Source: Styela clava (taxonomy: Eukaryota). Taken from it: a stretch of 64,000 bases of DNA. The DNA lies in the NCBI RefSeq assembly GCF_964204865.1, contig NC_135250.1, forward strand, positions 26,908,001 to 26,972,000. Reading direction: 5' to 3'. The notes beneath the pieces are model-generated. The model was not told the DNA's origin. It made no database searches and was given only the letters and a program-made list of their open reading frames with translations. Position numbers and translations under genes: made by a program. Shown piece after piece: positions 36,495 through 64,000 of this stretch. Each line of letters opens with the position of its first letter. Position 1 is the first letter of the stretch.

Positions 36495-36841
36495 TAAATC
36501 CGCAGTATTCACATCAACTTAATTGATTACCTTGAAAAGTTACAGTTCTAGATCAGCAATATAACTCGAACCACAAGAAAGGCAATCTACAAGTATAGGT
36601 ATTTCGAACTTGTGTCAAACGGCAACCCAAATATATATTTGGAAGAGGTTCAAATTGAACTTGACATAGTGTGGCTATTTTTATTTGTTGAAAAAGGCAT
36701 CTGATTCACCAGAAATGAAAAAAAAAATTGTACCCCTTCGAATAACATAGGTACCGGAGCTTTTTAGAGTAGCACGACGAAGCAATTGAGCAAGAGCGGT
36801 TCAGCTCATTGTTAAAAGAAGTATATTAGTGCTCCGAAATC

Positions 36842-38644: not shown

Positions 38645-40014
38645 CAGTGTTTCCCAACCCGAGTCCGTTTGAATGAGTCCGCAACGAGCCAGCAATTCAC
38701 TGCGGGTCGCAAACGTTCTTGCGAAACCTAACTATCAGCCAAGTTACGATTTACGTTAGAATTTACATAAAACACGAAAAGCAAGTTCATTCACATAGCA
38801 TTAATCGAGTCAATATTTACTGGTTACTAAGTAGGGCTAGGCATATATTAGAATATTCAGTTATTAGAATAGCAATTTACTATTCGAAAATTTGGTAACA
38901 GGTGAGGCGACAGGTCACGTGCGCGTCGCTTAATCAAACGATTGTATTTCACAACTCACTTGCGGATTTCCAATGAAAACACGAGTCTGCACACGCATCG
39001 ATAGATATCTAAGTGGTTTTCGAACAACGAGGAATATATTTTTTTCTGGTTGGTGTCAATGGTGGCAACCCAAATTTTCTAAATTGAAAAGCGGCAATAC
39101 AAAATACTTGAAAAAAAAACGGAGAACATCACAAGTTTTATTTTATGATTGTCCGCGACCGATTAAAAACGCTTTTTCAGACATTGCAAATCGCAACATT
39201 TCGGGTGCTACTTTAGTATAAGTACCAGGGCATTTTCCCTTAAGAATTCTTTGCTTTACTGCCTCCACATTGGTACGTACAGTAATGTAGCGCCGTAAGC
39301 GTTGTACGAACAGCCCATATTTGTCGAATTTACAAAAATACGAATCAAAACAAAATATAATCGGGCACTTTACCACGCGGTTTTGTGTCCACGGATTGTC
39401 ATAGTATTGCTTTTATTTCGTCAACACAACCGCTGTTAAAATGATCACAATTAAATTAAAAATAATAAAGCAAGGCGATGGATATGTCTTTTTGATTTAC
39501 TAATATATTTTAAATATATTTTTAATATGTTCTAAATCAAGTTGAAATTTATAGCAAACAGTAGGATTTTTCTAACGGCGATAACGAATTCGCAAGATCG
39601 CTAAAAATACGTATCAAAACCAAATATAATCGGGCAATATATTCTCACATTATTATGTTAGCAGATTGCCGTGGCATTTTAAAGAAGTAATGCTTCCATC
39701 TTGTCGTAAGTGCACGCAACGCGATTTACCATGAACACAATTAAATAAAAATAGAAAGACATTTTAAACCCTCGTCGTTGTCATGGATTGAATATTGTGC
39801 GTCAGAAAAGGCCATTATACACTTAAAAAGCCGGCTTATTTAACGGACGCGTAATCGCTTCGAATTTCCGATTTCGAAATTCGATAAAATTCTGTTGTGT
39901 TTGGTTTTATTGCCTCTTCACACAGAGTACGGTTGCAATAAATGCACCTTGAGTACGCAAAGGTTTTCGCCGATGAGAAAATAGTCCGCGACCGAAAAAG
40001 GTTGGAAAACGCTG
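38645..40014. mobile_element. hAT-type non-autonomous element, probably with a nested TAGGGCT element from ~38832
   Basis: TIR CAGTGTTTCCCAACC/GGTTGGAAAACGCTG, perfect 8-bp TSD CTCTATAC. Confidence 0.85.
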
Positions 40015-40091
40015 CTCTATACCCTAATCACCGATGCTGCACTACAACGACCAACCTGTTGTCCAATAAAAATCCCTGTCGACGAGAAAAG
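40015..40091 (+). promoter_or_regulatory. Putative non-coding first exon / TSS region, copy R
   Basis: Mirror of 33522-33595; donor AAG|GTAATT at 40091/40092. Confidence 0.5.
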
Positions 40092-40757
40092 GTAATTCCC
40101 CCGCAATGCAAAGTTGGGTTCGTTACTTTTTGCAAAATCTTTCCACTTTTCAGATGTTCTTCAGGCTGTTCGTTTCGGGCCGATTTGTATTGTATTCGGT
40201 GTTTACTTAGCTTAGGTTAATATCAATATATCAGTTTAAAGGTAAATATTAAATTTACTTCATGTGTATATAGAACGATTCATATCTGTGGGCTGTGTTG
40301 TCCAAAGTACATGGCAGCTAGGACTGGACAGATTTCCCATTGGATATGAATAGGATAGGATAAATACTGTATAGTACGCACAGTGGCATAGCTACTAAAA
40401 TAGCGCCTAGATACGCTACCTTTATATGACCTTTATAAATAAAGCTGATAGAATTCCAAGTGGACAAAATGTCAAAACATCATCTAATTGGAAAGAGAGC
40501 AATGGTCAAATATATGGACACAAATCTAAGTTATCGATAAGGTGAAGTTTCAGTACAGCACCAAGTTTGCTGGAAAGATTGGCAGACAAGCAATATGAGG
40601 CGGAAAATATAATAAAATAAATTGTTCACATATTTTATAAAAAAAGTGTTCCCGACCATTGGGTGAAATTTTAAGCCCCAATAACACTCTGAATAAATAT
40701 GAAAATTATAAAAGTAGCCTGCTTGCAACTTCAACTATTTTCAATAGTCGATTAAAG

Positions 40758-41126
40758 CAGGGGTGTGCTACGTGTGACCTGCGGGCCAAATGCAGCCCAC
40801 AAGGAAAAATTTTGCGGATCGATGATACGTGCCAATTTTGAATTGTGTGCGGCCCGCGGAACAAAATTCTAACTTAGTTTAATCTAATATGTCTGAGTAA
40901 TCCCAATCCCTTTGCGTTGCAAAGCCTATACCTGAGTCCAAATTTTATGACGTTCTAATGCCCTAACAGCTAGCTTGAGTGAAGCGAACAACACATGTCA
41001 TAAGATCAATTTTCAGGATTTTTGTACGTACAAGTACTTAAGAGCATATGGTAAAAAAGATGCAGCCCGCTGTTTCTCCAAGTTATTTGAATGTGGCCCT
41101 CATGTATTAATGGTTGCACACCCCTG
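40758..41126. mobile_element. hAT MITE (paralogous copy ~30085-30417; relatives 25708-26030, 45297-45625, 31447-31817)
   Basis: CAGGGGTGTGC...GCACACCCCTG; TSD GATTAAAG/GCTTAAAG. Confidence 0.75.
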
Positions 41127-41323
41127 GCTTAAAGTATTTAAATGATCGAAATTTCTGTTTTTTTTTTCTCTTATTTTCTTCATATCTAATAATTTATTAT
41201 TTAAGCACCCTTCTTATATTTTAAATAATCATCTCGCCAAATATAACAAAAAAACTATTAGCAAATTTTGACAAGGGCACCTATACTGTATACGATATAC
41301 TTATTTATTTATGCAACATATTT

Positions 41324-41662
41324 ATAGGATAGGATAGGAATTACATATTTATCCCGGGGGAGAGGAAAGTCGATAAAACGGCTTATCCATATGGCGAACC
41401 ACGGCCTCTCGTTCGGTTACCATTCCAAGTCGGGTATGGGATCAGCTAGTTATTTTATTTTTTCGGAAGCATGGACTTGGTGGTGGAGGAAGCCGTAACC
41501 GACCAGCGGTTACGTGAACCACCCTACAGCGGCGAGGATTCCAGCAACCCTCTCGCACATAACCATCCCGCATGGTATTCGAACCTGCGAACCCCACGCA
41601 GACTAATTAGAGGTGCGGTGGCGAGCGTATTCCTAACGCTTAGCACGATGAGCCACACCGCC
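41324..41662 (-). mobile_element. Full-length tRNA-derived SINE (family 1)
   Basis: A box-like TGGCTCATCGTG, B box GGTTCGAATAC, 3' tail (ATCCT)n. Absent at the paralogous site ~29870. Confidence 0.85.
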
Positions 41663-42011
41663 ATGCCTTTATACGGCTTTTTCTTTGAACAAGTCCCTGC
41701 AAGCACCTTCTCTCTTTGGTTCAGCAATGCCTACTAAATTTTCAGCATCAATAATTACAGCAGACATATTCCCGATTTGAAGCATAAAAATGCCTTCCTA
41801 TCAATGAAAATTGATGGGGAAGGCACATTACTGTCCCTTTTTTCGGTATTCCAGGAAAAGACAAATAAACCGAGCCATCCTATGAGTTAATCCCATAGAA
41901 TAGGATATGAAAAATTGGCGTATTAGCTGGAGATACAATACATGGAATACTTACAAAATCCATTTTATAAACTCATATCCTGTTACCCGTCTTACAGATT
42001 TATTTAGAGTT

Positions 42012-45000
42012 ATGGAAAACAACACAGTACATGTTACTGGTTTTCCCCTTTCTGTTAATAAAGTGAAATTAAAACTGTTTGTTGAAAACAATATAGGACT
42101 CGATATAATAGAAGATGTGGAGAAAAGAGACGATGTTGTAGTGTTCAATTTTAAAAATGCGCATGGTAATTGTAGTTTTTGGGTGTTTTTTTTAATTTTA
42201 AAAAATTCGTTCAGAAGTTCTCTAACCTTTTTTTTTGAGTTTTGATGTTTTTAGGATTCGTTCGTCATATTTTCACTTCATGAAAGGCTCTGGTTTAGCA
42301 GCCACTAATACATTGGAACATCATTTTCTATATTGACATTCTCTTCCAAAATTATTACACCATTACCGTAGTGGTGGACAAGAAATATGTTTGACATATT
42401 TACTAATCTGTGACACCAGAATAATGAGGCTTTTATTCACATTTCTGCATATTGATTTTTGATAGAAAAAATGTAATTTTAATTTCTAAAAATGTTTAAT
42501 AAAACTCAAAACTGTGATGCCATGCAGGATAATCAGCATTACCATTGCAAGCATGCTTAGAACTTTCAGTACTGGTGAAAACAATCAAATCTTCCATTTT
42601 ATCTTGCCTTATTTTCGACTGCTCATCTTAGTCTATGAATTATTTTGACGTTGGTTAGTGGGTATGCAGGTTAAAATCTCGAGGGAAATAATTATGATCA
42701 AAAAGATTGCTTGACTTCTCGCGGGCACAGTTTATCGCCTCCTCTACCATCAAAACTATGCTTCTAAAACAAATAGCTGGTTATCTATTCTTATACACGG
42801 CATGGACTGGTAACTGGAAGGGAGGCCATAGTTATTCATATGATTAAGGCATCTTATCTATTTATTATTTGCACCATATGTAACAATTTATTTGTTTCTA
42901 ACATTTTTGATATTTATTTAGGTTTGCAAAAATTTCTTAATGCTGGTCTAAATGAATATACCTTTGGAAATGATAGTTACAAGCTTACAGTAATACAGCA
43001 ACTTACAGAACAATATCCAAGATATGACACAGGTAGGCAGATCAAAAATATATTTATATTTCAGAAGTTAAAAAACACACAGCATTAGCATGATTATACC
43101 AAATTTTGGGATTGAAAATCTGTAAGAAGATAAAGTAAATAAATAATATTAAAACGACAACATACAGTAATACAGTATGAAAAGTTCTATATTTCATATG
43201 GGAATGGAAACACAGGACTCAAAAGTGCTCCATAGGAGTGCTAGATCTTCCCTTATAACTTGAATATAAATGAAAAAATATATGTACCCTGGGGCTCGTC
43301 AAAGATCGTGATAATTCACGAATGCGGTAAAATTGGGTGAAATTCTGGAATACCAATATTGCCAAGCGGGAAATATATATAAACTGTTAAAGTGTCAATC
43401 ATTATTGTATTTTTTATACGGGGCTTATTTTTTTTGTTTTTTCGAACAAGGCCCGCCTTATACAAGGTGCCACGGATAAATAAAGACATAAAAGAAACGG
43501 CTGGTATTGGAAGGAGCCAGGGCCTTTCTGGTTCGGCATTGATAATTTATTATATCCTTGGTCCATTGGCGGCATGACATTTGGTATCCAGGCTGGATAG
43601 CGACTGTCATAATGGCGACTTCATAATAGCGACGTGATCAAGTGAGCGACTGTCCAAACAGCGACTGTCATAATGGCGACTGCATTAAAACAGCGACTGT
43701 TATGATAGCAACTTAACTTTCGGTGCAGAAATGACAAAACAAAGTTAGGGTTAGAGTGTGGGGGATGGAAGGTCTATTGGGGGGGGGGGCTGTTTTAATG
43801 CGGTCGCCATTATGACAGTCGCTCACTTGATTACGTCGCTATTATGAAGTCTCCATTCTGACAGTCGCTATTTGGAACCCGAGCCATGAGATTTGAATAT
43901 AGGAGGAACGTCTGTTGGGTCTAATGGCTCAACTGCTAGTCCATCGCACTCGCAAATTTATAACAGGAATGAAAGAATTTCAGGGATCAAAATTGTGCAT
44001 TTAAAAGATTTAAGAATTCAATCAAGAGTGAATTGTGTTCTAGCATCAGTGTAATAAATTTATTCCAAACACAAATTTATATTATAATGATCACAGGACC
44101 CAGACATCAACAAAGGAATCAAAGATACGGTCCAAGAAATGAGGGTTTTAGAAATGAAAGACCTAACCAACCATATCGACAGAATCCAGGCTTTGAAGGA
44201 GGTAATGCAAGATATGGAGCAAGAGACGATGGTTATGTATACGCAAGAACTAATCAACCGTATCGACAGAATCCAGGATTCCAAAGAGGTGATCCAAGAT
44301 ATGGAGCAAGGGACAATAATTATGGAAACGAGAGAACCGATCAACCATATCGACAGAATCCCGGATTTGGAGGCAGGGACAATAATTATGGAAACGATAG
44401 AACCGATCAACCATATCGACAGAATCCAGGATTTGGAGGCAGGGACAATAAATATGGAAACGAAAGAACCGATCAACCGCATAGACAGAATCCAAGATTT
44501 GACAGAGGCGATGCAGATCAATGGAGGAGAATTTTATATGTCACTCAGATACCACAGCATTTGTGCAATCATCTAGCTTTCAGTTCACATTTCGAAAGGT
44601 AGGACGCTTCTCAGTTTATGAACTTGAACTTTTTTGCACACATTATTTATCTTTGATAAATAAATAAGATTTTTATATTTGTCATGGCGGAGATGAAAGT
44701 TAATGAGAAAGCCTGATTATAAAGGTGACTATGGTCACTCATTTGGGTACCAATTTATATTGGGTATTGGAATAGTTAACCAGAAATTCATTTTAGAACC
44801 ATAAAATATGAGGATAAATGCAAGATTACACTGAAAACCTTTGATCCTTATTTGTACACAAGATTTCATTTATTATTTTTTCTCAAGACAAGGTCACGAG
44901 AACTCACTCAGAAATCAAAGGTCATTTTTTCTAAGCAAAGCTACAGGCAAAGCTACCAAAAGCTTCTGACACTACATATTACCTCCCAGTACCACTCCTA

Positions 45001-48000
45001 GTCAGAAGATAAATTCATTAATCAAGTTTGAAAAATTTGTTCGTGTGTAACAATGATTTTTTTTGTTTTGTTATTTTTGGTTTTTAAACCTCCACCTGTG
45101 TTCCACGCCAACCATACTGTGTCATCATTTTTTTAGGTTTGGACCTCTCGAACATTGCTTGTTCAAACCAAACAGGAGGAATCCTGGATTTCATGGATAT
45201 GTAACATTTAGAAATCATGTGAGTAATATCTCTGTCTAAGGTGTTTCACATCTTTGCCAAAAACAAGGTTCCAAGCAAGCCATAAATAAGGATCTAGGCA
45301 AGGTGTGAATGTTATTCTCAGAGCTTCTGGGCTTTTGAGAGAAAAGGGCCAGCTTCATAGGAAATGAATATCACAGGGCCGCGGGCTGCACTTTTATTTA
45401 TCATAGCCTTTCTAGTAGTTGCAGGCATGAAAAATCATTGTAACGTCATGAGCATAGATAATAAAATGGACGCTGGGTAAAGGGAATGGAATTACTCGCA
45501 TGTACCAGAAACTAAATTTAAAACTTGATTCGTGGGCTATGCATCATTCAAAATAGTCCCTTCTCCGTGGGCCGCACAATTATTTCTTGGTGTACGCATT
45601 TGGACCGCAGGTTGCACACCCCTGGTTTAGAATACTGGTATCTAATTGATGAATTTTGTTCAGAATGATGCTTGCCGAGCAAGGCATGAAGGAGTAAATG
45701 CTGGACCAATGAGTAATCTGAGTATACAATGGGCTGATAGTGAAGGTGATTAGATTGATAATTGTTTTCTAAATTAAGATTATTTTTATATTGCCACTGT
45801 AGAACCAAATAAGCTTGTGTCAAAATTTAGGTTTTGAGAAATTTGTATTTTTGTTATAATTCGGTTCCAAAATAAAAATGGACATAGGGCGTCACCTGCA
45901 ATCAAACGTAAAACAGGTACAGCTTTGAAACTTATACCAAAAGATTGCCGCTTTTCCATTATGACAGAAATTCAAAAAAGCCACATTTTGGTTTTGAAAA
46001 AGTCACATGTTTATAATTTTGGTTTCAGCATCCAACTATAAAAATTAGAAATTACCTAAAATCAAAAGTGAAACAGGTACAGCTTTGCGTAGTATGCATA
46101 TCAAGATGGCGGACACCAGAACGTAGTATGTGTACCAGGTTAGGGTTAGGCCATAATTTTATTCCAATTTACTATATTTCAGTTCTATTACGAGTTCAGG
46201 GACTAGCCAAGTGACTCCTGTAGTATTTATTCCTAAAATTATGGCCTAACCCTAACCTGGTACACATACTACATTCCGGTGTCAACCATCTTGGTACACA
46301 TACTTCAGGAGTACCCAGTTTTGAATACTAGACCAAAATATTGGTGTTTATCCCTAATGACAGTAGATTAAAAAAGTCCATTTCTGAAAAATGTGACATA
46401 AGCTAATTTGGTTTTACTCTGGCGATTCCAAGTTTTATTATTATTGTTCTCTAAAAAAAGAGTCAGTTGTAGGACTTGTCAATGTTTAAGTTAAAATACT
46501 TTAAATTACATGTAAATTGAAATTAGTGAGAGTAGGCCAAAATCATTGCACAAATCATCTCATGATGCAGTGCTTTTGTTCCAAACAATGTAAACTGGTG
46601 GCCTTGGATTTTGAACCCAAGATTTGAAATCTATGATGCCAACTTATTTAAGCCCTATTAATTATTACTATAATTGATCACTATTCTTTCTCTTTTCTTA
46701 TGCAGGTCCCAAACCTACCCCAAACTTTAATGAACCTGGTCCTGGGCCTCGACGCTCATCAGCCACTTCTGATGATAGCGGTTACTCAACACCAGGCAAT
46801 CGTGGTCGAAGAAAAAGAAGGCCGAATGCTAACTCTGCTGGAATATCAAGAATGGGCAAAGCGCCATCTATGCCAGACTTACGCCCTCCAACACCAAGTA
46901 GACCTTTGAATGAAGGCCCTCAACACGCTGTACTTGATCCGATTCAAGAAGAACTTTTCACTGAAACTCATTACTGGAATACATTAAAGAAGATGCCTGA
47001 AACTGAAGGATCTATGTGAGTCTTTATTAGAAATGTTATAATATGAAATTTGATTAAGGCAAAATTCAAATTTGATGCAAAAAAGATTTATACTGAAGGA
47101 TTTAGAATATGAAAGTATTTGTTTTTCATTGAAAGTTTCAATTTTTGATGTGAAGGTAAAACATTGATTGGCAGATGACAAATTTTGATTTTAAAATAAG
47201 AAGTCAAATCCGAACCAGTCACAATGACCCGGATTCAGGCTTATTGTATTGCATAGTGATATATAACTGTACTCAAAATTCCAGTGTATGACATAATATT
47301 ATTTTAAATTGAGTCTTCTTTTATTTTTGTTATACATAATTTAGGTTTCACTTTCATGGCATATCCTAATACGAAATCAAATATGGGTAGCATATGGCAG
47401 CATATTTACTTATACTGGTTGTTCATAAAGTCACATTATATATCTTAGTCATATTTGTTTCATTCTAAAATATTTTACTTCATTTAATACACCTTTAGGG
47501 GCCAATAAACTATACATAGTATCTATAAATGAACAGTATAAATGAATCTAAAATATTTTATAAAATTATGGAATTCGAATAAGCATTTGTAAAATTTCCC
47601 GATAATGATACTATAGTTTCACAAGAGTCTTTATTTGCCAAACTATCTTATGACTCATGTATAAATACAGTTTATTCAAACATAAATCAGCTGGTTTTGT
47701 TTACTGTGTGATAACAGCAAGCATAGCCAGCGTTGTGTGTTTGTTCATTACACTGAGTCTTTGTTTAACACCCACGCTTCAGAAATAATTAATAGAACTC
47801 AATACTTTATGTCTAGCAAATGAAGGATTAATATTTTTATATCTCGCTTATTCAGGTCTTTTGCTCTGAATAAAGAATTAATTAAACAGCCACTGACTGT
47901 TATCTAACAATCTTCTATTTTTTGAAACAAATCATCTTTTCATTTTCGGCATTTTTCACCCAATTTATCACACCGTGGGTGAGGCTGGAACATGGAATTT

Positions 48001-51000
48001 GAAAATTTAAATTGGGATGTGTAATCTGCTATGCAAAAACATTTGAGTCTATAACCGCTGGGGTATCACACCCTATTTTATGTTTTGTCATGTGTCCCTG
48101 AAATCTCTATACCTTTGTTTGTGGTTATTTGTGTATATATAATGTTGCCTTTTGTGTTGGCCAGTGAGTCAAAATTATCAGTAACCATGCCAAATCTATT
48201 TGAATCTGTATAACTGAGCCATAACAATGGAATGAATATTTGAAAAAACCACATTACATGAAAATTCAATTTGAATGAGGAAACGTCCAAAGTGATCTTT
48301 TATTTATTACTGAGTAGTACTAGGCAGAATATATAAAACTAAATTTTCCATTTTGAACAAATTATTTGATGGTTTATGCTTGATATGGGTAAATTACTAT
48401 TTGATAAAATGTAATTGTTTATTTATTACATTATTCAATTTAATTTCAATAAATATTCAAAAGGCCTTGCTGTAAAATTTACAAATTTATGTTATAAACT
48501 TTTTTTTTTTGAGTTTTGTCTCATCGAATTTGTCTCGAATTTCCCTCTTGTTTTAGTCGTGACACTAGTGACATCTTGATATGTAATCGAAATTAACTTA
48601 CATTCTAATATATGGTAAATAAAAACATTAGGACGTAACATATTAAGATACGAAAGAATAAGAAATCCCAGATGTGCAGAATTCTGGGAGATAAATATAT
48701 TTTTATATACGATGTATTTATATGCTCTGTATAACCAGCCACTGCTTGGTATGAGAGCAAGGGAGAAAAAGCAAGACAAAGGATAAAGTTTTTTTTTACA
48801 GTATTTGAATGACTTTTGTTCTGAAGAAGTCTTTGAACAAGCAGCCACTGATAGTTAACGAACTATTGTAGTTTGGAAGAACCAGAATCATTCCAGTTTG
48901 GCATTGCCTACCCAATTTATCGTACAGTGAATGGGTTGGTCGCGGTGGGATTTAAACTCTCGATTTTTTTAATCGGCGATGCCAACATAGTTAATGCAAA
49001 TGCTTCAACCACAGAGCCATATTGTTCATAGATATAATTTTTTATCTCTTATCTCCTCTATTATCTATTTCACAGATGTGTTCTTGCTCAAAACATTGAT
49101 CCATCAAAGCACATTGATACAGTGAAAATGCATTTTGAAAATAAGAAACGTTCGAACGGCGGGCGTGTGAAAAGTGTTATCAGAATGATTGATGGATTGC
49201 TCATTGTATTTGAGAGTAAAGAAGGTATGTTGATAATTGTGAAATAGAAATATTTATATTTGAAAATATCTTTGCAGCACTTATTATTTTATGATAGACA
49301 ATAAAATAGTTACTGTATATTCTCACATATACGCCGTTCGAGCATATAAGCCGGCTCTCTGAAAACCGGTCTTAAAACGACGATTTTATAAAAATTCGCA
49401 TATAAGCAGACCCTACGAATCTTACCACGTCGTACACACCTATCACAGTCAGGATATCAAATTGTAAAAAAAATAGTTAACTTCTGACAGAATAAAATAG
49501 CGAATACTAATTTTAAGAATGTTTATCTAAATTTTTCTGTAATTTTAGTTTTTTACGAATTTACAACAGTCAGACAAGCCCAATAAGACAGTCTAATCAT
49601 GTGGTGAACCACGGCCTCTTATCCAGTTACCAATCCTTGTCAGGTGTAGGAATAATTTCACTGTTTTTTTTTTCAGATACATAAAGTTAAAGTCTGTTAT
49701 ATTCTTTCAATTTTTTTTTATCTTGTTTCAGATTGTGAGTCATGTTCAGGAAAACAAGATCAAAAGTTTGATGGAAAAGACATCTCTATATTTCCTAAAT
49801 CAATTCCTTCATATTTTGAGCAAACCTTTATCATTGAGGTAACACTATTTTGAATCATCAGATTTACGGTATATGTATTTCTGTTCAATGTGCAACGCTA
49901 TCACAGTCAGGATGAGATTTTTTAAACTTATCCCAGGGGGAGGGGAGAGAGGAAAAGATGGCTTAATCATATGGCAGCCTCTCGTCCAGTCAACAGTCCA
50001 TGTCGAGTATGAAATTAGTTAGCCAGTCATTTCGGATGCATAGACAGGATGTTGGAAAAAGCCAAAGCAAAAAGTCAGCGGTTACTCAAACCACCCTACA
50101 ACAACAAGGAGTGGTCCTGTTGCACATAATTATCCCCTGTGGGATGCAAACTTGCACAGGGTCATCAGAGGTGTTATAGAAATCGTATTCCTATAGCTCA
50201 TCATATTGCACCCCATTCAATGTTCTAAATACTAGAACAAAGTACTATATAGTGGAATGTTTTTATGAATTTTTGCTTATCGCAACTATGCTTATTTCAA
50301 TTATCCTGCTATACCAAATTCAATACTTCTTTTGAACATGCCCAACCAACACTAATCTTTGACCCCAGATTAACTATTCTTCTACTTTACCATTTCACAA
50401 AATTTTTTTATTCTCATTTTGAAAGTGTTATAGCGAGTTGGGGCTTACAAACTGCTTTATATGCTTCATAACTAATATTTTGATTCAAATTATTTTATTA
50501 CAAAGTTCCAATTCTAGCCTAATCTTTTACAGGTTTTTTGAGACTAATTTTTGATTACTTCAACTACACTTAAAATCCTTGGCCGACAATTGACCAATGA
50601 GTTATGTAATTCATATCAAAATTTTAAAACAGATACAGTAATACAACCATTCCCTAAAAAGCATCTCACTTATTATCTATTTTACGTAATTAAACCAAGT
50701 ATAAACAAGATGATTGGTGAAACATCCGATAAGCACATATTTTATATTCCAAATTCAGAAATATTATTCCAGAATGTATCCATAATAATAAATTATACAC
50801 CACTCTCATTTCAGTTTCCCATTCATACCATTTACAGGGAGTTGGAGAAGCAACAACACAAGATACTTTGACAATGTACCTTGAAACTAGCTCTACTAAT
50901 GAAGCGTCGCCTGTATCTTTGAAAAAACAAGATATACAGGGCGTTTATCTCGTAGAATATGGAGATGATTTTGGTGGGTTCAGATTCTCATTTCCGGTAA

Positions 51001-54000
51001 AAAATATACCAAATTTCTTGTTATGAATACCCTTGGAAGAACTTTACTTTATAATCCATATCATTAATCAGTCTAAATGTAGGGCTATCAATCAAGGATA
51101 GGATTTTCATATTTATACTTAATCATATCACCTTTGCCTCTCATTCGATTACAGTTTCTATCGGGTGCGAGAATAGTTAATCCTCCCAGCTATTTTAGGA
51201 GTTTACCTTTTCAGAAATACATTTTTGGGTACTTCTGTAGTATGTGTACCACGTTGAGCTTAGGCTGTAATTTTATTCTGATTTTCTATATTTTAGTTCT
51301 ATTACGAGTTTGGGGACTGTCTGTGTCAGCTAATTGAATATACCTCCTGCCCATAGGCTTCTGTCCATTTACAAATCTTGATGTAAAGTAAGCGAAAAAA
51401 ATTTGTTACCACCATATTGGTACATATATTTCTGGAGCGCCCATTTTTGAGTGACACCTTGTGAGTCTGCAAAATTTGCGCACTCAGAATATTTTTAAAA
51501 CAGCTAAAATCCATAAAAAGTACAATATTTTTTGCATTCCTGAGAAATACCCAAATTCCTTTACACCTAATACTTATTATAACTTTCATACAGATATCAG
51601 TGAAAGAGATTCATTTTTGGAAAAAATTAGGAAGAAACCTTTGGAAGACCGGACTTTGAAAGTAAGCTGAAGTTCTTGCATCAATTATTGTTTTATTGAT
51701 ACTGGTATCAAACGATTTTGTTCAGTGTGACTACAGTTGGCATGGTAGCCAGTAAGCAAATGTTTCATTTTCAATGATTGTGAAAGTCGTACAAACCACT
51801 TTCCAGCAATCCTTCTCACGAAATCATCAAGCATAGGATCCAAAGCAGCGAGCCAGCATGTGAAAATAATGTACCACATACTCGAATGGTATATACTAGT
51901 GACTCAAACTAATCTCAAATCATAGTCAATTTACTTTAAATCAATGTAGTCATTACAAATGGTTCCTAGTCATTGCTAGTAGCGCCCAGATAATTACTCT
52001 TTGTCGCCACAGTGGGGCCAAGGTCCCAGTTTAAGAAACTTTGGTCTGTGCAGTGGCTGAAATATTCCTAAATTTGAACTTTCTTTTATTCCGTGCTTCT
52101 TTGCCATTACATTTTTCAGGCTTCAAGGCTTTTAAGAACTGATTGCCTAAAAGCATCAGGAATTCCAGATTCAGTAACAAATGATACAATCAGACTTACG
52201 TTTGAGAGTAAGAAAAGAACTGATGGTGGGCCTGTGACAAGAATTGATAGAATTGAAAATCAAATTACTTTGGTCTACTTTGCATCCTATATTGGTAAGT
52301 ATTGAAATTTAGTGCATCATACTTTTTTCCAATTACCAGATTCGGTATAGGAATAGTTTTTTTCCCATTTTTTTTTCGAGAAGAATTTGCTAAAACCGCA
52401 GTCAGATGTGCTCATTCAAAACTAGAAGAGACTGATCTCAGAGTAAAGTTATGGATGGCCACTAAAATGATACATGCAAGACTTTTATCCAGTTGGTAAG
52501 GTTTTTTCTCCAAGAGAATTTGCTAAAACCACAGTCCGGTGTACCCATTCAGAACTAGGGGAGACTGATCTCTGAGCAAAGTAACAGGCAGCCATTAAAA
52601 TGACCATAGCTACTGAAACTGTTACTAATAACAAATATCTACCACACCCTAAAATGGACCCCCCCCCCCCCCCCCCCCAGTAACTTGAAAAGCTGGGGAA
52701 CATACTGTCGCCAACTATAAGGTTTTACAAATACTAATTTTTTTATTCACTATAACATTAGCCGCCACTTGAAAGCGGAACATGAATGAAAGCACCAATA
52801 AATATGACTCAATTGAAAGCATATCAAGTATGACTCAGCAGGTAGAACGGTACTAAGTATGTGTACCAGGTTAGGGTTAGGTCATAATTTAATTCCGATT
52901 TTCCTTATTTTAGTTCTATCGCGAGTTCGGGGACTGTCTGTGTTAGCCAAGTGAATATATCCCCTGCCTATAGGTTTCAGTCCCTTTACACAACTTGATG
53001 TAAAGTAAGCGAACAAAATTAGTTACCTCCATATTGGTACACATACCGGTACTTCTAGAGCGCCGGTAAAACACTGTTGTCACTGTCATTACACAGACAC
53101 AACAAAGTTGGAAATAAACTGAATTATGCCAATATAAATGACCAGTGACCACAATTACTACATTCATTCTACAGTCGCCAATTTTGACAAAAAAATTAAA
53201 ATTTCTGTTAAACTCTTTAGATACTGCTCGAGTGTGTAGAAGATTCAAAAAACCTAGTTCTGAATCAATTATTATTGGGCAACATCCTGTTGAAGTTGAA
53301 TTGTATTTTCATTCACTCTCAAATCTACATAAAAGTGTTGAAAAAAGTGAAAACGGGAAAAATCTACGAAAAGGTGGCAAAAAAGGTAAAAAATAAGATT
53401 GGATTTTTTATGTTTATTTATTTTGTTTGAGAGGAGAAAGACAGTGAAGTGGCTTAATCATATGGCAGACTGAGAGGAAAGTGGGGTAAGCTGGCTCTCA
53501 TCCAGTTACCAATCTATGTCGGGTATGGTAATAGGTAATCAGTTATTCATTTATCTGTGTGGGCTTCATGGTGGAGGAAGTCATAATTGACCAGCAGTTA
53601 CATGAACCATCTCACGAAGGTGAGAAGTCTAGCAATCCTATTGTCCATAATTGTTTCTCATGGTACTTTGCCGTCACATCCCCTTTAAACATTTAGAATA
53701 ATGCACCAAACATCAAGTTTCATTATATATTTTCTTCAATGTCCATAGACTACAGATGATCCCCATCGGTACTTTCTTTTTTATAACTTTTGTTAGAAAC
53801 AAGACCCTTTCTGCCCAATGCATTATACCTTCGGTTAGTTGGTGATCATGGGAGTAACCTGCGATGCCAACACATCTTAGTTTGTCGCTTCAACTTCTAT
53901 GCCCATAATTTTTTTCCGAAGCATGACTTTTTAATATTCACTCATTCCTTTTCATTTTAAATTCAGATCCACCCAAGCCTACTCCAAGATCTCAAAAAAA

Positions 54001-57000
54001 TGAAACACTGAGCACTTACATTTACAAACCTGAATGTCATGATAAAATTTTCTTCTTCATTCGACTAACTAAAGCGCAAGTTAACAAAATAAAAGACGTT
54101 TTCAAAGATTTGGCCAATGTTGAATTGTGTCATACTGCAAAAGAAGGGAAATTTGTCAAGTTTGTTCCAGAAAAGGTATTAACCAGAAAAAGTTTACATA
54201 TGTTGTAGCTGACAAACCTGTTTACGTTTAATTGAATCAGAATGCCATGAACTTATCTTTAAATTACCTCGTCTGTCATGTGTGGAGTCGTTTGCTTTCA
54301 TTGTTATGAACAAGACTCGAATATCCGTCGCCTGTATGTCTTTCATTTCCGGCTTTTCTTAGTATTTAAATGTTTGATTTTTTTCTACAGTATAATTTAA
54401 TGTTAGACTTCCTCCATAGCTGACGCTGCTAAATAACTATTACTGGTTTATCGAGTCTCCTTTCACAATAGAATGCATTTTTTTTATCTGTCTTTTGTCT
54501 GTACGTACAATGCGTATTTTTGGCAAGTGTAAAATAATTTACTGATTACTGATTAGTTTCAGTGATCTGTTGGAGTCATTATATGAGTTCATTTAGTCAT
54601 TCATTTTGTTCAGTCTGTTTTGATTTATCATTTAAGGTCATTGGGGACATTTTTCCTATTGTTCTTTTTACAGGATCCAGGCATGGACACCCAAGATGGA
54701 TTCGATACTGAATGCAAAACAAGATTTGATGATTTCATTACCAAGTTTTTAACTTTGACTCAAACATTTGACAAAGATAAATTAAGCAAAGCAATATCAC
54801 TCAACGTTTGTCCTTATTTGAATAAACCAGAAACTAAGAATGATATCAACATCAGGTTAGTGATTATTTCACTTTTCCGTTTTCTTTTTTAAAAACTTTC
54901 AGTTTCTATTAAGCCGCCCCACTGTGATGTCACAGAGCTGTGAGCATGTGACATCACAGTGATAGTTCAATTGCTGCCATTACAAGTTAACTAACTGCAG
55001 AGGTGTAGCTGAGGCTGCCCTTTTGCACGTTTGGTGATTTAGGAGGAAGTTACAGTAGGCAATTTATGAAGTTTTGCCAGTCCGCTTCTAAATGCTGTTT
55101 TACAATGAAACAATTGCACCCATCTCATTAAACTTTGGCATATACTTTTGTTTGGTTGTATTTTTTTACTATATGGTGCATTAATTTTATGTTGTGATCT
55201 TAATATGTTTTGATGCACAAGGCCGCGCACTAAAAATATCATAAAAAAAATTGCAGGGAGTCTGTCATGAAATTTTTTTCAAGTTTGAGAACCACTGCAC
55301 TAGACCATCTTACCCACATGTGTTAAATTTTGCATTCAAACAGGGTGATAATCAATGTTGTTCATAATAGATGACATAATATGAATCATTGTTTTCAAAT
55401 ACTTATTCTATTTACGACTGAATTTTTGTTTTCATGTCTTCAATTTATTCAGGTGGCAACCCAATCAACCAATAGTAACTGTAACAGGATTGAAAGAATC
55501 TGTTGATAAAATAATGAAAGAAATTGAAACTTCTATCAATTCAACTGTTGCTGAAATGTCAGTTAATGAAGAACAATACAGGTGAATATTCCCTTTTTGT
55601 GGAATGCCGATTTATACAGATAACTTTTAATGTTTGTTTGTTTATTTGCTTCATGCCAACATGTGTTGGAATTATTATGCCATTGCCATTATGGACAAAC
55701 CCATGCAATTTGTAATGAAAGTTTGTTAAAATTCAAAGATAAAACTGATTATTCTTGATTTGAAATAAATCTGTCTTATTGAATAGACTCCATTCCAGAG
55801 TTTGGTTAATTAATAAACGTATGACTATGAAAATTTGTTTTATTTTCAAACCTTGACTGCAGAAATCTGAAATTGTGACTTGGTGGAAATTGAAAATTCG
55901 ACTTAGGAATTAAAAAATATATACCTATGGTTCTGACTCTGGTATTAAAAAAACTGCCCCTGTTTCTAATTATTTGATGGGTAAAGAACTCGTTCTTTTA
56001 ACAAAAAATATTAATCCTAATGCAATTCTGGTTGAATTGAACAGGAGCGCAAAAACGGCGAAAAGTATGTAAACAAATTGATATTATTACAGGAGATATA
56101 TTCAGTTCCTTCCAATGGTTAAATAAAAATGATCTTGGGAAGTTGTAGTGGGGACAATAAATTATAAAGTATTTGAGGTTTCATTTTCCAAGCAAGCATC
56201 GCAAAGTCCACCATTCAACCAACTCCTAAACACTCGTTCCTCTTTACGAAGTAACTTTATTAAATTAGGGCTGTTTGATCCATATTATGCTACTCTATTG
56301 ACAGAATTCTTACAAACTGCGGAATACTGTCCGAACTTCAAGCTAAGCATAAGAAAGTACAATTGGTACTAGATGATACAAAGCACAGTGTGACGCTACA
56401 AGGACCTGAAGTCGATGTTTCAAGGATTCAAATTGATGCTTTGACTATATTGAATGTTAGTCATGAATTTTTTCATATTTGTTAGGGTAGCATAACATAA
56501 TTCTTATTTTTTTCAATTGCTTTGTTGGAATATTATATAATACTTCTTATTAGCCGGAGGAGAATTAGTCTGGGTGATACACACAGTTTGCAATACCAGT
56601 AACGTTAATATACTAGAATTTAAATAGGTTTAAATTTGGTTTGAAGTGGACATAGCTACCATTAAAATGAAAAATTTAAAGAGAAGCTGTATCAAACCAA
56701 TACTTTCAACTGTTCAACTGGCCACAGCACATTGTTCATGGTGCTTTGACATAATGCTCTGCAGCCCTCAAGGTTTATTATCTGTTTTATCCCGTGCATC
56801 ATTAAATGTAAAAAGTTACTAATTATATGCAAATACAAGTGTCTGATAGTGAAAATAAGACGTTCCTATTGTATCCTCTATTATGTTTAGTGAAACTAAC
56901 AAGTTTGTACCAGTTACTGTTTGGTCCAAATGGCTACTGTTTTGCTCTTCCCTGGATAATATATGAAAATAAACTGTAAAAACATTACTTGAGTTTACGT

Positions 57001-60000
57001 ATATCTGAGTCAAATTTTTAAGCCATAAAAATCACTCATATTCAAATTACAGAAATAAGGTTTTTAAAAAAACTATACTGGGTTAGGAAGCCCATCAATG
57101 CATCTGGAACATTGAAAATGAACTGCGTATTAACATATATAAACTACCATTGTATCAAGACAATAGTTAGTGATTGGATTTCCATACAAATTCTTTTCAT
57201 CTTTATATATTTACAGGATAAAAATCAATCCAATTCTCTTCTTGACATTTGATTAACCAATAAATTCCTCATTTCATAACAGACTGTTGAAAAAAGAAAA
57301 TTATCAGATGTAGATGAGAGCATAGTTAGATATTTATTGGAATCAGCATCTCAGTCTAACATCGTCATATCAAAAATACAAGACAAACTGAAGATCGATA
57401 ACATCAAAGGTATCGGTGGTTATACTGTAAATATAATACTATTAAATTTGGGCGTGTGAAATGTTTTTAAGTGTGCTTTTTTGTCTAGAAGTATATTGAG
57501 TGCCCGACATTGCGTTATATTACGCGAATATATGTTATTTTTTTCTGTTCCGGCCATTTCAATTTTTTGCCGGTCGGCGAGTACATTTAATCTAATTTTA
57601 CCGGTCCACCAGGGTAGAAAGGTTGGGAACCGCTGGCCTACTTCACATCAAGTTGTATAAAGGGACTGAAACATATGGGCAGGGGGGATATTCACTTGTC
57701 TAACACAGGGAGGTCCTGAACTCGTAATAGAACTGAAATAAGGAAAATCGCATTGAAATATTGGCCTAACCCTAACCTGGTACATACACTATGAGAGTAT
57801 ATAAATTTGTTCATTAACACTGACTGTGTTCATATATTAACATAATAGATAAATACAAATAGCTGACACAATGAAATAATTATTCAAATTACAAACAAAT
57901 GATAATATAATTATAGTATATGTCATATGAAATTGTATACTGTACATGCTGGTATTTTATAAGGGTCTTCTTTGTAAATAAAATGAAATAATGCTTTGCA
58001 AGGGTTAGCGAATGCACTCGCTATCAAAGCTCTGATTACGCTGTGTGGGTTCTAGACCCAATTATGAGGGTGAGGGTATTGTCTTTTCAATTTTGCCCGT
58101 CCCCCTCCATGAAACAAACATGAAAATCATATTATGCAACTCGTTTACTTACAGCTTCTCTCGGAATTGATGATGACGAGCTTTGTTTGAGAGTTCGGTC
58201 AGATGACGATTTCAAAAAAGCCATTCGTATTATCAAAGAAATGGTTGCCACGGAAACAATAAAAACAGACCAATCTCGATCGAGTCTGGTGAAATCTCCT
58301 GCATGGAGAGGATTTCAACAAAATCTTAAAAAATCTGGAATATACGGACTTTATATAAAAGTAGGTGGAAAATACACTGTTAAAAATTTGTATTGAATAA
58401 TATGCTGGTTAGATGTAGCAGGTTCAAACTCAGTTGAGTTCTCCCATTTTCATGATTCTTTCCACTTTTAAAAAATCACTTGCCACCTGCTCCTCTACAA
58501 AAATGTATAGTTTTGCTTTTAGTGCATTGTTATTAGTTAATGCATGTGCCACGTTTAATAATAAAAACTAAAAAAAAGCAATAGAATGAATGTTTTACAG
58601 TTGAAGTATCGAACAAACCACAGTCAATTTTTTTAAAATTAATTTAGACCATGAATCAGTTAATTTTGTGAAAGAGGATTACTGGAATCCTCACTGCTGT
58701 AGGATGGTTCACGTTACTGCTGGCCGGTTGCGGCTTTCTTCACCATCGAGTCCATGCATGCGAGGTATTTTGATAGAAGAGCAGAGGGCCATAAGCAATG
58801 GCAATCTTTGGAAACATGCCAAAATTAGTTTCTATTAAAATGATTTTTATGTTCTTTTTCAGCCCAATCAAAGTCTCATATTAGTATCAGAACTTTCAGA
58901 ATTAAGAATTTTGAAGAACAAAGTCAACTCATTTCTGGATGAAAATTCAATCAAGTGCATTTATATTACAATGAAATATGGACAAGCAAAATTTATCGTG
59001 GAAAGATCTGAAGAATATTCTACTGAGAAATGCAAACAGAAATCAATAAAATGTAGTTTAACTCCTGAAAACGGAGGTGGATTATGCATTGAAGGAAAAA
59101 GGAAACCACTTGAAGATGGTGAGGTTTATTGCGGGGGCAAAATAGAGGATCTTAAATGATAGCCAGGGTATTAATGTGTTAGAGTTAACTGTGTTGGCAA
59201 CGCAATTCCACATCTCGGCTTCGAATCTCATCTCAACCAAAGTTGTAATAAATTGGGTTGGCAATGCCAAACAGCGAAAAAAATGGTCCTTCTAATTAAT
59301 AGTATGATAATAGGATTTACATTTTACGTACGATATTATTATAGAGTAATCAGAGTTGTGATGACAAGCACATTCATAATGCTTGGCGTGATGCCTCATG
59401 TGTCGAGCCATATTATTAGGCTTCTTCTCAACTTTCTATTTTCAGCTTGTCAGCTCTCTTTTAACAAAAATAAAGATAAAAACATCTCATTGTGCTATTC
59501 TAACTTTTAATGTACGATATTATTACAGCACATTCGGCACTAACACTTCTCCAAAATCAAGTGACTGAACAGACAACCAATCTAAACATCGCTGGAATTA
59601 AGGAATATTTTCATACTAAAGGAGGCAAAAAGTTTTTATCAACAACTGAAAAAATGAATGATTGTATCATTTTAATGTCGCCCCTCTGTGAGGAATGGGT
59701 TAAATTCAACCCAGAGGCTAAGCAGCAAGCTCCTGTCCCAAGGTCGAGAAGTAGAAGGCCTGCTTCTTCGGTGAGTGTGTAAAAATTGGCTATGTTAATG
59801 TATAGTTAATCAGCGACAGCAGTTTATCCAGATGCTACCAGTAGTACTTCTATCTGTAAACAATCTGTAAACTATCATCCCTAACCTTGGAAAGACATGC
59901 AAACAACCTCATTTTTCCCCATTAGATATCACTGGCAAAGTACTCTATTCAGTAATAGACGAGGATACTTTTCTTCTGGCTGTGGGCAGTGATATGCACC

Positions 60001-63000
60001 TCACTATGACGATGAAGAAGTCTATCAATTCTCTTGCACAGAATTATCTTCTGCCAGATTCAAACTTGTAGGCTTAGGATGGGTGCTCGATAATGACAAC
60101 ACATACCTAATACAATGCTACTTTACATTACTTTGTTTAACTTCTTATTTTCTTGTCACATAGAATACAAGGGCACAACAATTGGCTTCTGTGACCTTGG
60201 CAAATTCATCAGTGACCTTGACTGTTTGGAAAGTTGACATCACAAAGCATACCTGTGATGTCATAGTAAACACATCAAATCCAGAATTAAAGTTGTTGGC
60301 AGGTGGAGTGTCTGGTGTCATCAAAAACTTAGGTAATGATTTGGATTTCATAATATTTATTTGGTACACCTGAAATATGCGTACCAAGAGGCAAGGCAGC
60401 AATATGCGGACATCGGAGCGTAGTATGTGTACCAGGTTAGGGTTAGGCCATAATTTTATTTCAATTTTTTTTCCCTATTTTAGTTCTATTATGAGTTTGG
60501 GGACTAACCAAGTGACTACCGTAGTATTTGTAGCTAAAATTATGGCCTAACCCTAACTTGGTACACATACTTCAGGAGCGCCAGTTATTTTAAAGCATTC
60601 TCCACTTAGTAGGTAGGTCCAACATGGTAACCACTAGTACTAAGCCAGAGGTTTCATCTGATTTCAATCGTTGTTCACAATTTTCATCTTTATTGAAACA
60701 TTAGCTAAGTATATGCACAACACAAACTTTTGGACAGTTAAAAGACTATATTGTGCACATAAATATTTGTTTTACAATACTACTAAGTAAGTAAAAAACA
60801 TTAGTAATACTACACACAAACACGAAGTTGAATTCCTCAACTAGAACTGTTGAATTCCCTGTTTAAGCAATCATGCTCAGTTGCTCACTGCCGCGCCCTA
60901 TTTTTAGAATTTGTCTCGCCCCCTCCTCAAATATAACTACCGGTATTTAACAATAAGCTACAAATAGCATATATTTTATTCAAAAGCACGTTGAAAATAT
61001 GTGGATGGAATCGCAATCTCTCAACAATGAAGAAATGTAAATATCCAAGAAAAGACCGTCAAAATCAAATCTAACAAATATTTTTATTTTCAATTAGTTT
61101 CATGCCGCCGCAAAAATTTGTCTATGCCCCCTTTGACAAAACTGTCTCAGCAGCAAATAAATTCCTTAGTTGCACTATTGCTAGATGCAGTGACAATATC
61201 GGTCCCACATCTGTTTTGCAATAGATGATGCCAAATAGTCTCTACCTTGGGTGTCGTTGCTAAATAACCAGCTTTGGTTCCCCGTGGCTTTCAGTGAAAT
61301 TTGTATTCAATATTATTCTTTGAATTTTGCTTTTACTTCACTGGATGGGAAAAATAAACTTGACTATGACTGTATAATATACAACAATGAATAAACTGCT
61401 CGGTATAAAAAATTGAAGATTATTTTATTTTTACATTCTATATCAAGATGTCAAAAATGGAAATCAAATTCAAACAGAAATGAACAGAATTATAAGTAGT
61501 AACCGTGGAAACCTTCTGCCTGGTGATGCAGTTTTAACTGGGGCTGGAAATTTACCTTCTTGCAAAAAGATTGTCCATGCGGTTGGTCCAAGGTATGTGG
61601 ATGTTGTTATTTTGGAAATTCGTTTAAACCAGATTAAGAAACCCCCGTAGAAATTAATGAAATGCAAAAAAGTAAAGTGAATATAGAATATCATTTTCAT
61701 TGTTATTCTTGGCAGAGAGAAGTCAAGAAGGTCGCTTAATCATATGACAAACCATGGCCTCTCGTCCGGTTACTATTTCATGCTAGTTCTCACAAAGTTG
61801 TGACTTCAAACAAGGCTCTGTACATGCAGTCAATAATTTCTGAAAAGCTACTGTTTTGTTGCTCACAGTCTGCTCTGTTATTTGTTTTAGATCAGTGGTT
61901 CTCGAACATTTTAAGTCGTGCACCATTTTTAGAATTTGTCAAGTCCTGTGCCCCACATCAAAAAAAAGGCGCACAAGATCAAATCTAACATTTATTTTTA
62001 TTTTTAAATATCTACACAACCCATAAAAAAATCCACGGTTTTAGATGCATTCACCTGATAATGGAGGGGGAAGCTGTAAGTGACCAGCAATTACCTAAAC
62101 CACCCCACAACATAGAAGTGTCCAGCAATTCTCTTGCACATAATTATCCCCCAAGGGATTTGAACTTACGCATGGTAATCAGAGGTGCAATGAAAAGTGT
62201 ATTCCTAATGATTAGCACAATGCACCAACCGCCAAGCTAAATTTGTTCAACAAAATGAATGTCCTTCTATTTTCCACACTTAGATGGGATTCTCAGTCAG
62301 ATAGAAGTGATCCGTCTCTCTTGTTGAAAGCCTGTGTTTCAAAATCCCTTGAAGAAGTTGAAAACCATCAACTAAAGTCAATAGCCATGCCAGCAATTAG
62401 TTGTGGAGTTTTTGGTGGAAATGCAAGAACCTGCATTCCGTTAATTTTAGAAGCAATAGCAGAGTATTTTAAAGATACCGCTAGTTCTGTGATAACAAAG
62501 GTAAGTTTGATGAGTAAAATAGAATCAATATTAGAAAAAAAGGCAACGAAAGAGCGTACATTGGTGCATAGGTGACGCATATAGTGAGTATATAATACAA
62601 AACGATAGAAAAAGCTTGTTGAACCTATAAAATATGGTATAACATGATTGTGTTATCTTAACAGTCCTGCTAAAATAGATATCAAATTATAATATAGGCC
62701 CTATCAGATGCGATTACACGAAACTAAATCGCTATTCTTTCTCTATACTTTTGCACTAAAAGATTCGTTCATAATGTAACATTACTGTAGTAGGAATGAA
62801 AATGACCATTCTTTTCAATTAAAGAGTATTGCCACAAAATACAAATGTTATTTCAGTAAGAATTCATCTGACAATTAGATTATTAACTTATTTTTAGATC
62901 GACCTTGTTGAAAACAGCAAACAAGATATTCTTGATGAGTTAGTGAGGAATATTAAGAAACATGGGACGAATTCTTCCCCTTCAAATTCTACGGCCCAGT

Positions 63001-63750
63001 CTAACCAAAATACTCAACCTCAGGTTGCAAGTTTAAATATTTCATGCAATGTCTCATTGGTACAAGGAGATATCACAGCACGTAATGTAAGTATAATTCT
63101 AATATAAGAAAGTAATGCACAAATAAAACATTTTTGGGCGCTCCAGAAGTATGTGTACCAATATGGAGGTAACTATTTTGTTTGCCTATTTTACATCGAG
63201 ATGTGTGAAGGGACTGAAGCCTATGGGCTGGAGGTGTATTCACTTGGCTAACACAGACAGATAGAACTAAAATAAGGAAAATCGGAATAAAAGTATGGCT
63301 TAACCCTAACCTGGTACACATACTACGGGAGAGAATTTAAGAGTTGGGATGGCATTGCATTTCTCAGGATTTATCATGGAGTAGGGTCTAGCAGTCTTGC
63401 ACTTACCGTAATAATTCCCCACAGTAAACGAACCTTTGAACTTGCACAGGAGGACCTTTTTCGAAGTAAAAGATGTGAATAAAGCAGACAATGCTACTTG
63501 TGTAGGGCGTTGTTTTGAGCGCAAGTTGTGAATAAGCGTACAAGCGTCACATAAAAAGTAGCAACTACATGAACAAGGACATTTATAAAAGGTTTGCACC
63601 AAAATTTTCTAATAAATGAACCAACAAAAGTCTGTTTCCACATTACAGGATGATGTGATTGTTAGTATAAGTCCTCCAAAACACATTGCTGACATGAGCG
63701 GATCTGCTGTATCGAAGGCTCTGTTGAAAAAAGCTGGACAGAGAATACTC
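42012..63750 (+). CDS. PARP14: PARP14-like macro-PARP, copy R (25 coding exons, ~1455 aa visible; continues beyond right edge)
   Basis: Exons: 42012-42165, 42922-43032, 44097-44598, 45137-45218, 45664-45745, 46706-47015, 49076-49224, 49732-49838, 50838-50973, 51594-51661, 52120-52294, 53221-53385, 53967-54175, 54674-54855, 55453-55581, 56305-56455, 57283-57409, 58155-58360, 58863-59118, 59529-59770, 60164-60332, 61448-61592, 62284-62500, 62898-63086, 63649-63750. Exon lengths equal copy L except exon 3 (-66 nt) and exon 20 (+3 nt). The spliced frame is open throughout. Confidence 0.88.
43597..43879. mobile_element. MITE with inverted arrays of GCGAC-core short repeats
   Basis: Tandem TAGCGACTGTCATAATGGCGAC units facing their reverse complement; single arm at 27509-27610. 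Confidence 0.65.
44097..44598 (+). repeat. Coding tandem repeat exon, 5 cores
   Basis: Same exon as 26724-27291 but exactly one 66-nt unit shorter. Confidence 0.9.
48870..49020 (-). mobile_element. Second SINE-like family (paralogous copy ~21972-22120)
   Basis: TGGCTCTGTGG and GAGTTTAAATCCC Pol III-like boxes followed by ATAAATTGGGTAGGCAATGCC. That motif recurs at ~5280, 11235, 23345, 30850, 34520 and 59250. Confidence 0.5.
60164..63750 (+). CDS. Macrodomain 1 and start of macrodomain 2 exons, copy R
   Basis: DITKHTCDVIVNTSN; GAGNLPSCKKIVHAVGPRW; SIAMPAISCGVFGG; QGDITARNDDVIV. Confidence 0.9.
60363..60582. mobile_element. Merlin-like MITE present only in copy R
   Basis: TSD ATTTATTT/AGTTATTT; empty site AATTATTT on the minus strand at ~8885-8892. 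Confidence 0.8.
63137..63332. mobile_element. Merlin-like MITE
   Basis: CATTTTTG|GGCGCTCC start, ends TAACCCTAACCTGGTACACATACTACGGGAG. Confidence 0.7.
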
Positions 63751-64000
63751 GTAAGTTTTAATATCGATTCATTTGGAACATAATTCTAGAGCAGTGGTTT
63801 TTGAACTTATTAAGCCGCTCCCCGTTTTTAGAATTTGTCAAGTCTCATGCCCACCTCAAAAACAACTACCGGTAGCTACAAATAACATATAGTAAGAGAA
63901 AAGTATGTTTTTATTGAAAAACACGTTGAAATACGTGGATGGAACTAAATATTCAAAATGAAGAACCACTATTTTAGATAGAACTTAACTTTTGTGCAAA

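Follow-up and report, generated by a model that had tools for sequence, protein, structure and literature searches.

The stretch of DNA analysed here (contig NC_135250.1, positions 26,908,001 to 26,972,000; 64,000 bases, hereafter the window) is dominated by one large inverted duplication, in which self-comparison of the window matched ~4.9–33.6 kb to 40.0–63.9 kb, with the inverted arms flanking a unique spacer of 6.4 kb (33599..40015). The arms carry two head-to-head PARP14-like genes whose 5' ends point into the spacer, and the divergence between these two copies is a mosaic, with a homogenised middle between ends of older divergence. Copy A (1..33598, minus strand) has its ATG at 29368 and 25 modelled coding exons down to 6056, while Pfam Macro matches on exon pieces place further macrodomain exons on the same strand near 5659–5477, 4723–4565, 3772–3649, 2786–2556, and 2062–1868. 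Copy B (40016..64000, plus strand) has its ATG at 42012 and 25 modelled coding exons to 63750, and continues past the right end of the window. Both copies exit the window ahead of the catalytic domain, the WWE/PARP end of copy A lying outside it.

In the 25-exon model, introns are bounded by GT-AG in both copies (24 of 24 in each), and no stop codon was found in the 1476 codons of A or the 1455 codons of B across the 25 exons compared. A Styela clava protein (P0002), with Pfam matches to RRM_PARP14, KH_PARP14, three Macro domains, and PARP, maps colinearly, exon by exon, onto both arms, and Macro and RRM_PARP14 matches were also obtained on exons of the window, several of them under the curated cut-off. 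The N-terminal RRMs, KH region, and three macrodomains of a PARP14-like gene were recognized through this colinear protein together with the Pfam matches. A spliced contig (run X5) matches exons 13, 14, 18, and 19, with 409 intervening bases vs. 407 summed for exons 15–17; it fits the model over exons 13–19, from which expression of both copies does not follow, and no listed run is recorded as RNA.

No convincing coding exon was found in the spacer (33599–40015). The observed/expected ratio of CpG dinucleotides is 0.8–1.8 across it (32001–40000 scanned) vs. mostly ~0.5 in both gene bodies. Depletion in the gene bodies is consistent with gene-body methylation, and an undepleted spacer is what would be expected if promoters lie there. 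A putative non-coding first exon of B (40016..40091, plus strand) consists of an 88%-identical block with a conserved splice-donor-like end, and has its partner in A at ~33598–33522.

The two arms were aligned to each other (22,659 aligned columns), and 15,781 confidently aligned non-coding columns were kept after exons, gap edges, and unalignable stretches had been dropped. Change-point segmentation of these columns was run blind to a boundary proposed in a preliminary description of the window. Non-coding divergence was 0.181 at 40376–42254, 0.037 at 42255–50993, 0.286 at 50994–51196, 0.050 up to 53119, 0.008 at 53120–57918, 0.065 up to 60342, and 0.165 beyond. With a lower penalty, segments of 0.044 (57919–59120), 0.212 (59121–59342), and 0.038 (59343–60342) were obtained and, with exons included, of 0.242 (60343–61437), 0.011 (61438–61620), and 0.134 beyond, finer segments that hinge on the chosen penalty and a single alignment. 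The longest identical non-coding run spans 825 columns; when all 15,781 columns were permuted 10,000 times, no run exceeded 282, and within the middle alone it was matched by none of 10,000 permutations. Synonymous divergence (pS) was 0.234 in exon 1, 0.033 in exons 2–18, 0.054 in exons 19–22, and 0.215 in exons 23–25, exon 1 and exons 23–25 being alike at silent sites (Fisher p = 0.64) and the middle far lower (p = 2e-5). The two ends share a comparable, older level of divergence (0.23 and 0.215 at synonymous sites, 0.18 and 0.165 in non-coding columns; Jukes-Cantor 0.19–0.28) and are 78–80% identical between arms. By permutation, change-point, and silent-site analyses alike, divergence at neutral sites is a mosaic beyond chance, the pattern looked for as a mark of interlocus gene conversion.

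The diverged 5' segment (40376..42254, plus strand; partner 29100–30831) runs from the upstream intron through coding exon 1, which holds the first RRM-like region, and 89 bp into the intron after it. Its non-coding divergence is 0.18, exon 1 has a pS of 0.23 and a nonsynonymous divergence (pN) of 0.10, and each arm has an insertion of its own, 311 bp long in B and 143 bp in A. The preliminary description had called the promoter, intron 1, and first coding exon clearly diverged, which holds as far as divergence goes, while the labels "promoter" and "intron 1" depend on the putative non-coding first exon, no transcript start having been seen. The segment ends abruptly: the 89 aligned columns of 42166–42254 contain 21 substitutions against 68 matches, and from 42255/29099 onwards 265 of 265 positions are identical. 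A jump in identity had been placed at 42257/29099, and the first break returned by the blind segmentation (42255) falls at most 2 bp away. One contig (run X7) matches from 42185 on, its upstream 255 letters being unlike B and the 30 of them that are visible unlike A by eye; it could represent an insertion polymorphism, or a third copy with homology ending ~70 bp from the conversion boundary. Further upstream, an A-only 2.2-kb insertion of the upstream intron contains a nested inverted-repeat element of ~0.9 kb (32293–33203), probably a transposon of the foldback or miniature inverted-repeat (MITE) type.

The homogenised middle (42255..58680, plus strand; partner 12008–29099) covers exons 2–18 at 96.5% identity without gaps and a pS of 0.033, and keeps 560 substitutions and 61 gap events between arms. 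Its lowest-divergence tract (53120..57918, plus strand; partner 12767–17615) has 32 substitutions in 3796 non-coding columns (0.8%), five small gap events, and a longest perfect run of 758 bp, and the longest stretch at least 99% identical extends over 4138 columns (53807–57940). The near-identity claimed earlier for the middle, introns and old repeats included, is borne out for 53100–58400 (98.7%, 69 substitutions in 5299 aligned columns) and for 42257–48400 (96.2% with a small number of poorly aligned repeat columns counted in; 3.0% divergence over confidently aligned non-coding columns), and is generous for 48414–53099 (94.3%, 34 gap events), where more substitutions and arm-specific insertions of 80–402 bp are found (48.4–53.1 kb). 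Old repeats are indeed shared: eight tested copies in the middle are 91–100% identical between arms and 67–88% identical to other copies in the window, and introns and decayed repeats reach 99–100% in places. The plateaus within the middle lie at 0.8%, 3%, and 4–5%, with a six-fold contrast between adjoining multi-kb plateaus. Diverged islands, spanning 14–42% divergence, occur at 49337..49466 (plus strand; partner 21528–21656; 22 of 121 columns differ), which is without a third copy in the window, and at 50994..51293 (plus strand; 31 of 74 and then 25 of 177 columns differ), which adjoins an 80-bp A-only insertion and overlaps a repeat in its last ~60 bp alone.

High-copy short repeat families were noticed at 41349–41659, 46091–46304, 52856–53045, and 57490–57800, the first three with read depths hundreds of times that of unique sequence, and palindromic copies at 46091, 51237, and 52856 are 91–94% identical between arms, below their surroundings. 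In exon 16 of B (56365–56378), a three-base substitution and one further change alter two residues; three runs carry the arm-A letters there, and at the first of these residues A agrees with S. clava, so the form in B may have arisen recently or be private.

On the 3' side, a single edge at ~58650/11900 with only exons aligning beyond it had been described, and this did not survive the analysis: low divergence resumes at 59343–60342 and at 61438–61620. The first of these tracts (59343..60342, plus strand; partner 8904–10904) comprises exons 20–21 and the intron between, with 21 of 555 non-coding columns differing, and spans a 1000-bp A-only insertion. Before it lies a diverged island in intron 19 (59121..59342, plus strand; 40 of 189 columns differ) that adjoins a 240-bp A-only insertion; like those at 49337 and 50994, this island has low divergence on both sides, and third copies in the window do not account for any of the three. 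The second tract (61438..61620, plus strand; partner 8318–8502) is exon-sized, consisting of exon 22 (first macrodomain) and 28 identical intron bases after it, and differs in 2 of 175 columns between neighbours at 24% and 13%. Silent-site differences amount to 9.5/176 in exons 19–22 vs. 24/111.5 in exons 23–25 (p = 1e-4), with no difference detected between exons 19–22 and exons 2–18 (p = 0.18), and both exon 21 (1/41) and exon 22 (1/34) are low against 0.215 (binomial p = 0.0006 and 0.003). Protein constraint alone is therefore not what makes exons 19–22 align, since their silent sites, one whole intron, and the 28 intron bases past exon 22 are homogenised as well. In coding sequence the boundary falls within the first macrodomain, at the step from exon 22 to exon 23. 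The diverged 3' segment that follows (61621..63765, plus strand; partner 6041–8317; exons 23–25) has a pS of 0.215, a pN of 0.051, and a non-coding divergence of 0.156, and the 3' introns are interrupted by insertions of 185–1000 bp.

Islands of this kind bear on the proposal of one large replacement (~42255–59120 or –60342) followed by drift, with plateaus and islands arising from mutation-rate variation or donor polymorphism. The one sharp 5' boundary speaks for such an event, and allelic diversity is poorly measured here; we consider it very unlikely all the same, as uniform spacing of the differences was rejected by permutation both in the middle (0 of 10,000) and within 53.1–58.4 kb (p = 0.0005), adjoining plateaus contrast six-fold, and the islands are as diverged as the ends.

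Exons are more conserved than introns (pN/pS 0.22–0.44 over exon groups), which would suit a uniformly old duplication with its middle kept similar by purifying selection or a locally low rate of mutation. This is barely credible: the effect is present in non-coding columns alone, so purifying selection is not the explanation, and the segmentation of those columns contradicts it; middle introns and decayed repeats are 99–100% identical in places, and constraint would not be expected to lower non-coding divergence 20-fold across an edge one base wide. Selection keeping the ends different is possible, with pN/pS at 0.44 in exon 1 and 0.23 in exons 23–25 and the pN of exon 1 somewhat raised (p = 0.03), though no positive selection on the escaped ends was detected, none of the four exon groups exceeding 1. 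GC-biased conversion (favouring guanine and cytosine) was not apparent in the middle either, strong/weak differences being balanced (139 vs. 136; 10 vs. 16) and GC content flat in an unpolarised test.

Assembly artefacts were considered in two forms, a collapsed consensus of diverged copies in the middle and two alleles joined in inverted orientation. Single contigs of run X1 have depths of 13.5–17 in the B-only flank vs. 24–35 for the seven long middle contigs listed, with two short middle rows at variant sites at 12.5 and 17.2. A middle at ~2x flank depth argues against polishing collapse, which would give flank depth, keeping in mind that summed contig depth is not copy number, that contigs drop variants, and that X1 is possibly the source sample. 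The same 1:2 ratio fits two alleles as well as two loci, so that a haploid flank beside a diploid middle would explain it equally, and no contig listed from four runs spans the whole stretch. Even so, an artefact seems highly improbable. The middle retains its 560 substitutions and 61 gap events and no perfect run longer than 758 bp, and truly diverged copies would have been sequenced there at flank depth; the ends differ by 16–23%, while B-flank contigs of three runs differ from B by less than 1% (2/633, 0/215, and 1/151 differences, only contigs at least 90% alike being included); the 6.4-kb spacer is unique, and S. clava also has two copies. Uniform divergence and polishing collapse, which the preliminary description had itself named as grounds for abandoning its interpretation, are opposed by the permutations and by the ~2x depth of the middle, respectively. 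Depth in another run (X15) is mostly ~2 or less in non-repeat bins; 31 variant rows were checked among 40 of 593 (nine in high-copy repeats were dropped), of which 26 carry the arm-A letter, four a new one, and one a third letter. These rows were pre-selected and contigs drop variants, and they were not used as conversion evidence.

A macrodomain exon query returned two proteins only among 76 candidates, both of them S. clava PARP14-like at 58–60% identity. The S. clava proteins (P0001, P0003, P0004, P0002, and P0005) represent two PARP14-like copies ~84% identical, with members of both clusters on one contig of 32,746,820 bases; one annotation apparently divides one of the copies between two gene models. 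By exon group the S. clava pair is 82–97% identical, exon 1 being the highest (97%) and the middle at 86%. Across all regions, the window pair and the S. clava pair share 1146 gap-free columns, of which 437 group the copies by species and two by paralogue (one in either direction); the between-species identity (~45–52%) is too low to separate independent duplications from an old duplication under concerted evolution. An ancient duplication shared with the S. clava pair gained no support from this weak test (2/1146 columns). Among 1829 columns of the S. clava pair, four are polymorphic for an identical pair of residues in the two copies, with five co-polymorphic columns vs. 2.2 expected. The window pair might predate the split from S. 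clava, with homogenisation taking place independently in the two lineages.

Exons 3–5 (44097–46705, plus strand; 24628–27291, minus strand) encode ~220 residues without counterpart in the S. clava proteins, including a Gly/Asn/Arg-rich 22-residue tandem repeat with one unit more in A than in B. An extra RRM, suggested by eye after the tandem repeat, found no support: against a profile built from the other RRMs of the gene, the segment scored 0.2 bits, under many of 2000 shuffles.

From the observed duplication, open frames, mosaic, and boundaries, we infer conversion as the cause, several ages of tracts, and indels as a barrier; the best reading in our opinion, and a quite probable one, is that interlocus gene conversion has acted in patches on an older inverted duplicate, with indels limiting it. 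The earlier picture of an older duplication with a homogenised middle and escaping ends is sustained by ends at one older level, by lower plateaus with old-level islands between them, and by the ~2x middle depth. A PARP14-like gene would have been duplicated head-to-head, with unexchanged DNA since diverging by ~0.19–0.28 substitutions per site, while homologous repair between the arms would repeatedly have overwritten tracts of ~0.2 kb to several kb at different ages. The most recent exchange may have occurred where unbroken homology is longest (exons 12–17), and the additional substitutions and insertions at 48.4–53.1 kb are as an older tract would show. Exchange would have faded toward both ends as insertions and substitutions left only conserved exons long enough for pairing, of which the exon-sized tract at exon 22 could be an outcome, and the 1000-bp insertion within 59343–60342 may postdate its tract. 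Substitutions, transposon insertions, and large indels have been described as ending conversion or concerted evolution (PMC3924837).

The same mosaic could be produced by crossing over, if two spacer flips at different points swapped a segment and allelic recombination then placed the same segment in both arms. The geometry permits it, with inverted homology of 16 kb at 96.5% identity on either side of a 6.4-kb spacer, and the yeast flip/flop locus offers a precedent, a homogenised 4-kb inverted repeat driving recurrent inversion (PMC9731477). Polymorphic spacer orientation would be expected in addition, and in one haplotype the two processes look alike. We regard crossing over as an unlikely source, because the ~0.2-kb tract at 61438–61620, set in old divergence, would require two close crossovers, where conversion accounts for it directly.

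Several points weigh against conversion as we have outlined it. It is based on one haplotype only, and the S. clava pair is without the same profile. The plateaus could partly be allelic variation of donors instead of separate ages, allelic diversity here resting on three short B-flank contigs. The indel barrier is incomplete, the 5' boundary lying beside only 3- and 23-bp indels and the tract at 59343–60342 spanning a 1000-bp insertion. Finally, two loci and two alleles are not told apart by the depth ratio alone, which comes from a run (X1) that may be the source sample.

The two resulting genes are almost the same in their RRM/KH-type middles and over most of macrodomain 1, and are set apart by their promoters, first coding exons, and the later of their macrodomain exons. 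The process is well described, and the gene pair is a new example in a family known for duplication. If patchwork conversion is right, the locus is a clean, well-bounded case of concerted evolution in a large multi-exon gene of an invertebrate chordate, in which conversion can be seen to decay toward either end, to the point of a tract no larger than an exon. For these PARP14 copies, trees and ratios of nonsynonymous to synonymous rates (dN/dS) would vary with the exons chosen, and short reads could not assign expression of the middle to one copy. A further, rather unlikely idea is that the middle is a standing crossover platform, recurrent spacer flips swapping promoters and first coding exons against macrodomain and catalytic ends; the population would then carry a reshuffled pair of innate-immune ADP-ribosyltransferases, with selection keeping the ends distinct. 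Evidence of spacer inversion, or of selection acting on the diverged ends, would be needed for the locus to gain in significance.

The domain order agrees, by way of the S. clava relative, with PARP14 as reviewed in PMC13224862. Extra macrodomain PARP copies have likewise arisen through PARP14 duplications in fish, birds, the microbat, and the bushbaby, and in the origin of PARP15 (PMC4038475); such duplications are common in vertebrates, and the main text of that study is without the word "conversion". Literature searches on PARP14 with gene conversion and on ascidian PARP14 gave nothing on this locus by title or start of abstract among the papers listed, most subscription journals and supplements being outside coverage. 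Among invertebrates, conversion between adjacent head-to-head paralogues that reaches introns is described for hsp16 and hsp70 of Caenorhabditis (PMC3966223), in genes and tracts much smaller than those seen here. The flip/flop repeat of Saccharomyces (YNL018C/YNL034W) is also a gene-bearing inverted repeat continually homogenised around a unique core (PMC9731477); its inversion polymorphism was shown in yeast, whereas here there is only one haplotype, and crossovers would fall within the genes and exchange their 5' ends. Primate X and Y palindromes share the inverted arms with a spacer, the paired genes, and arm-to-arm conversion (PMC8327919). The likeness to Y-chromosome palindromes that had been proposed for the window does not extend to their definition as arms of > 8 kb at > 99% identity (PMC8327919), as the longest stretch at or above 99% is 4.1 kb and the ends are at 78–80%; unlike in sex-chromosome palindromes, nothing here indicates a sex chromosome or a non-recombining region. 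The closer analogue is SIGLEC11/SIGLEC16 of primates, likewise head-to-head, ~9 kb apart, and subject to repeated, fragmented conversion over part of an immune gene (PMC5701461), with the difference that conversion there affects the 5' 2–3 kb and is tied to paired-receptor function, whereas here the 5' end escapes and ~16–19 kb of the gene middle is homogenised.

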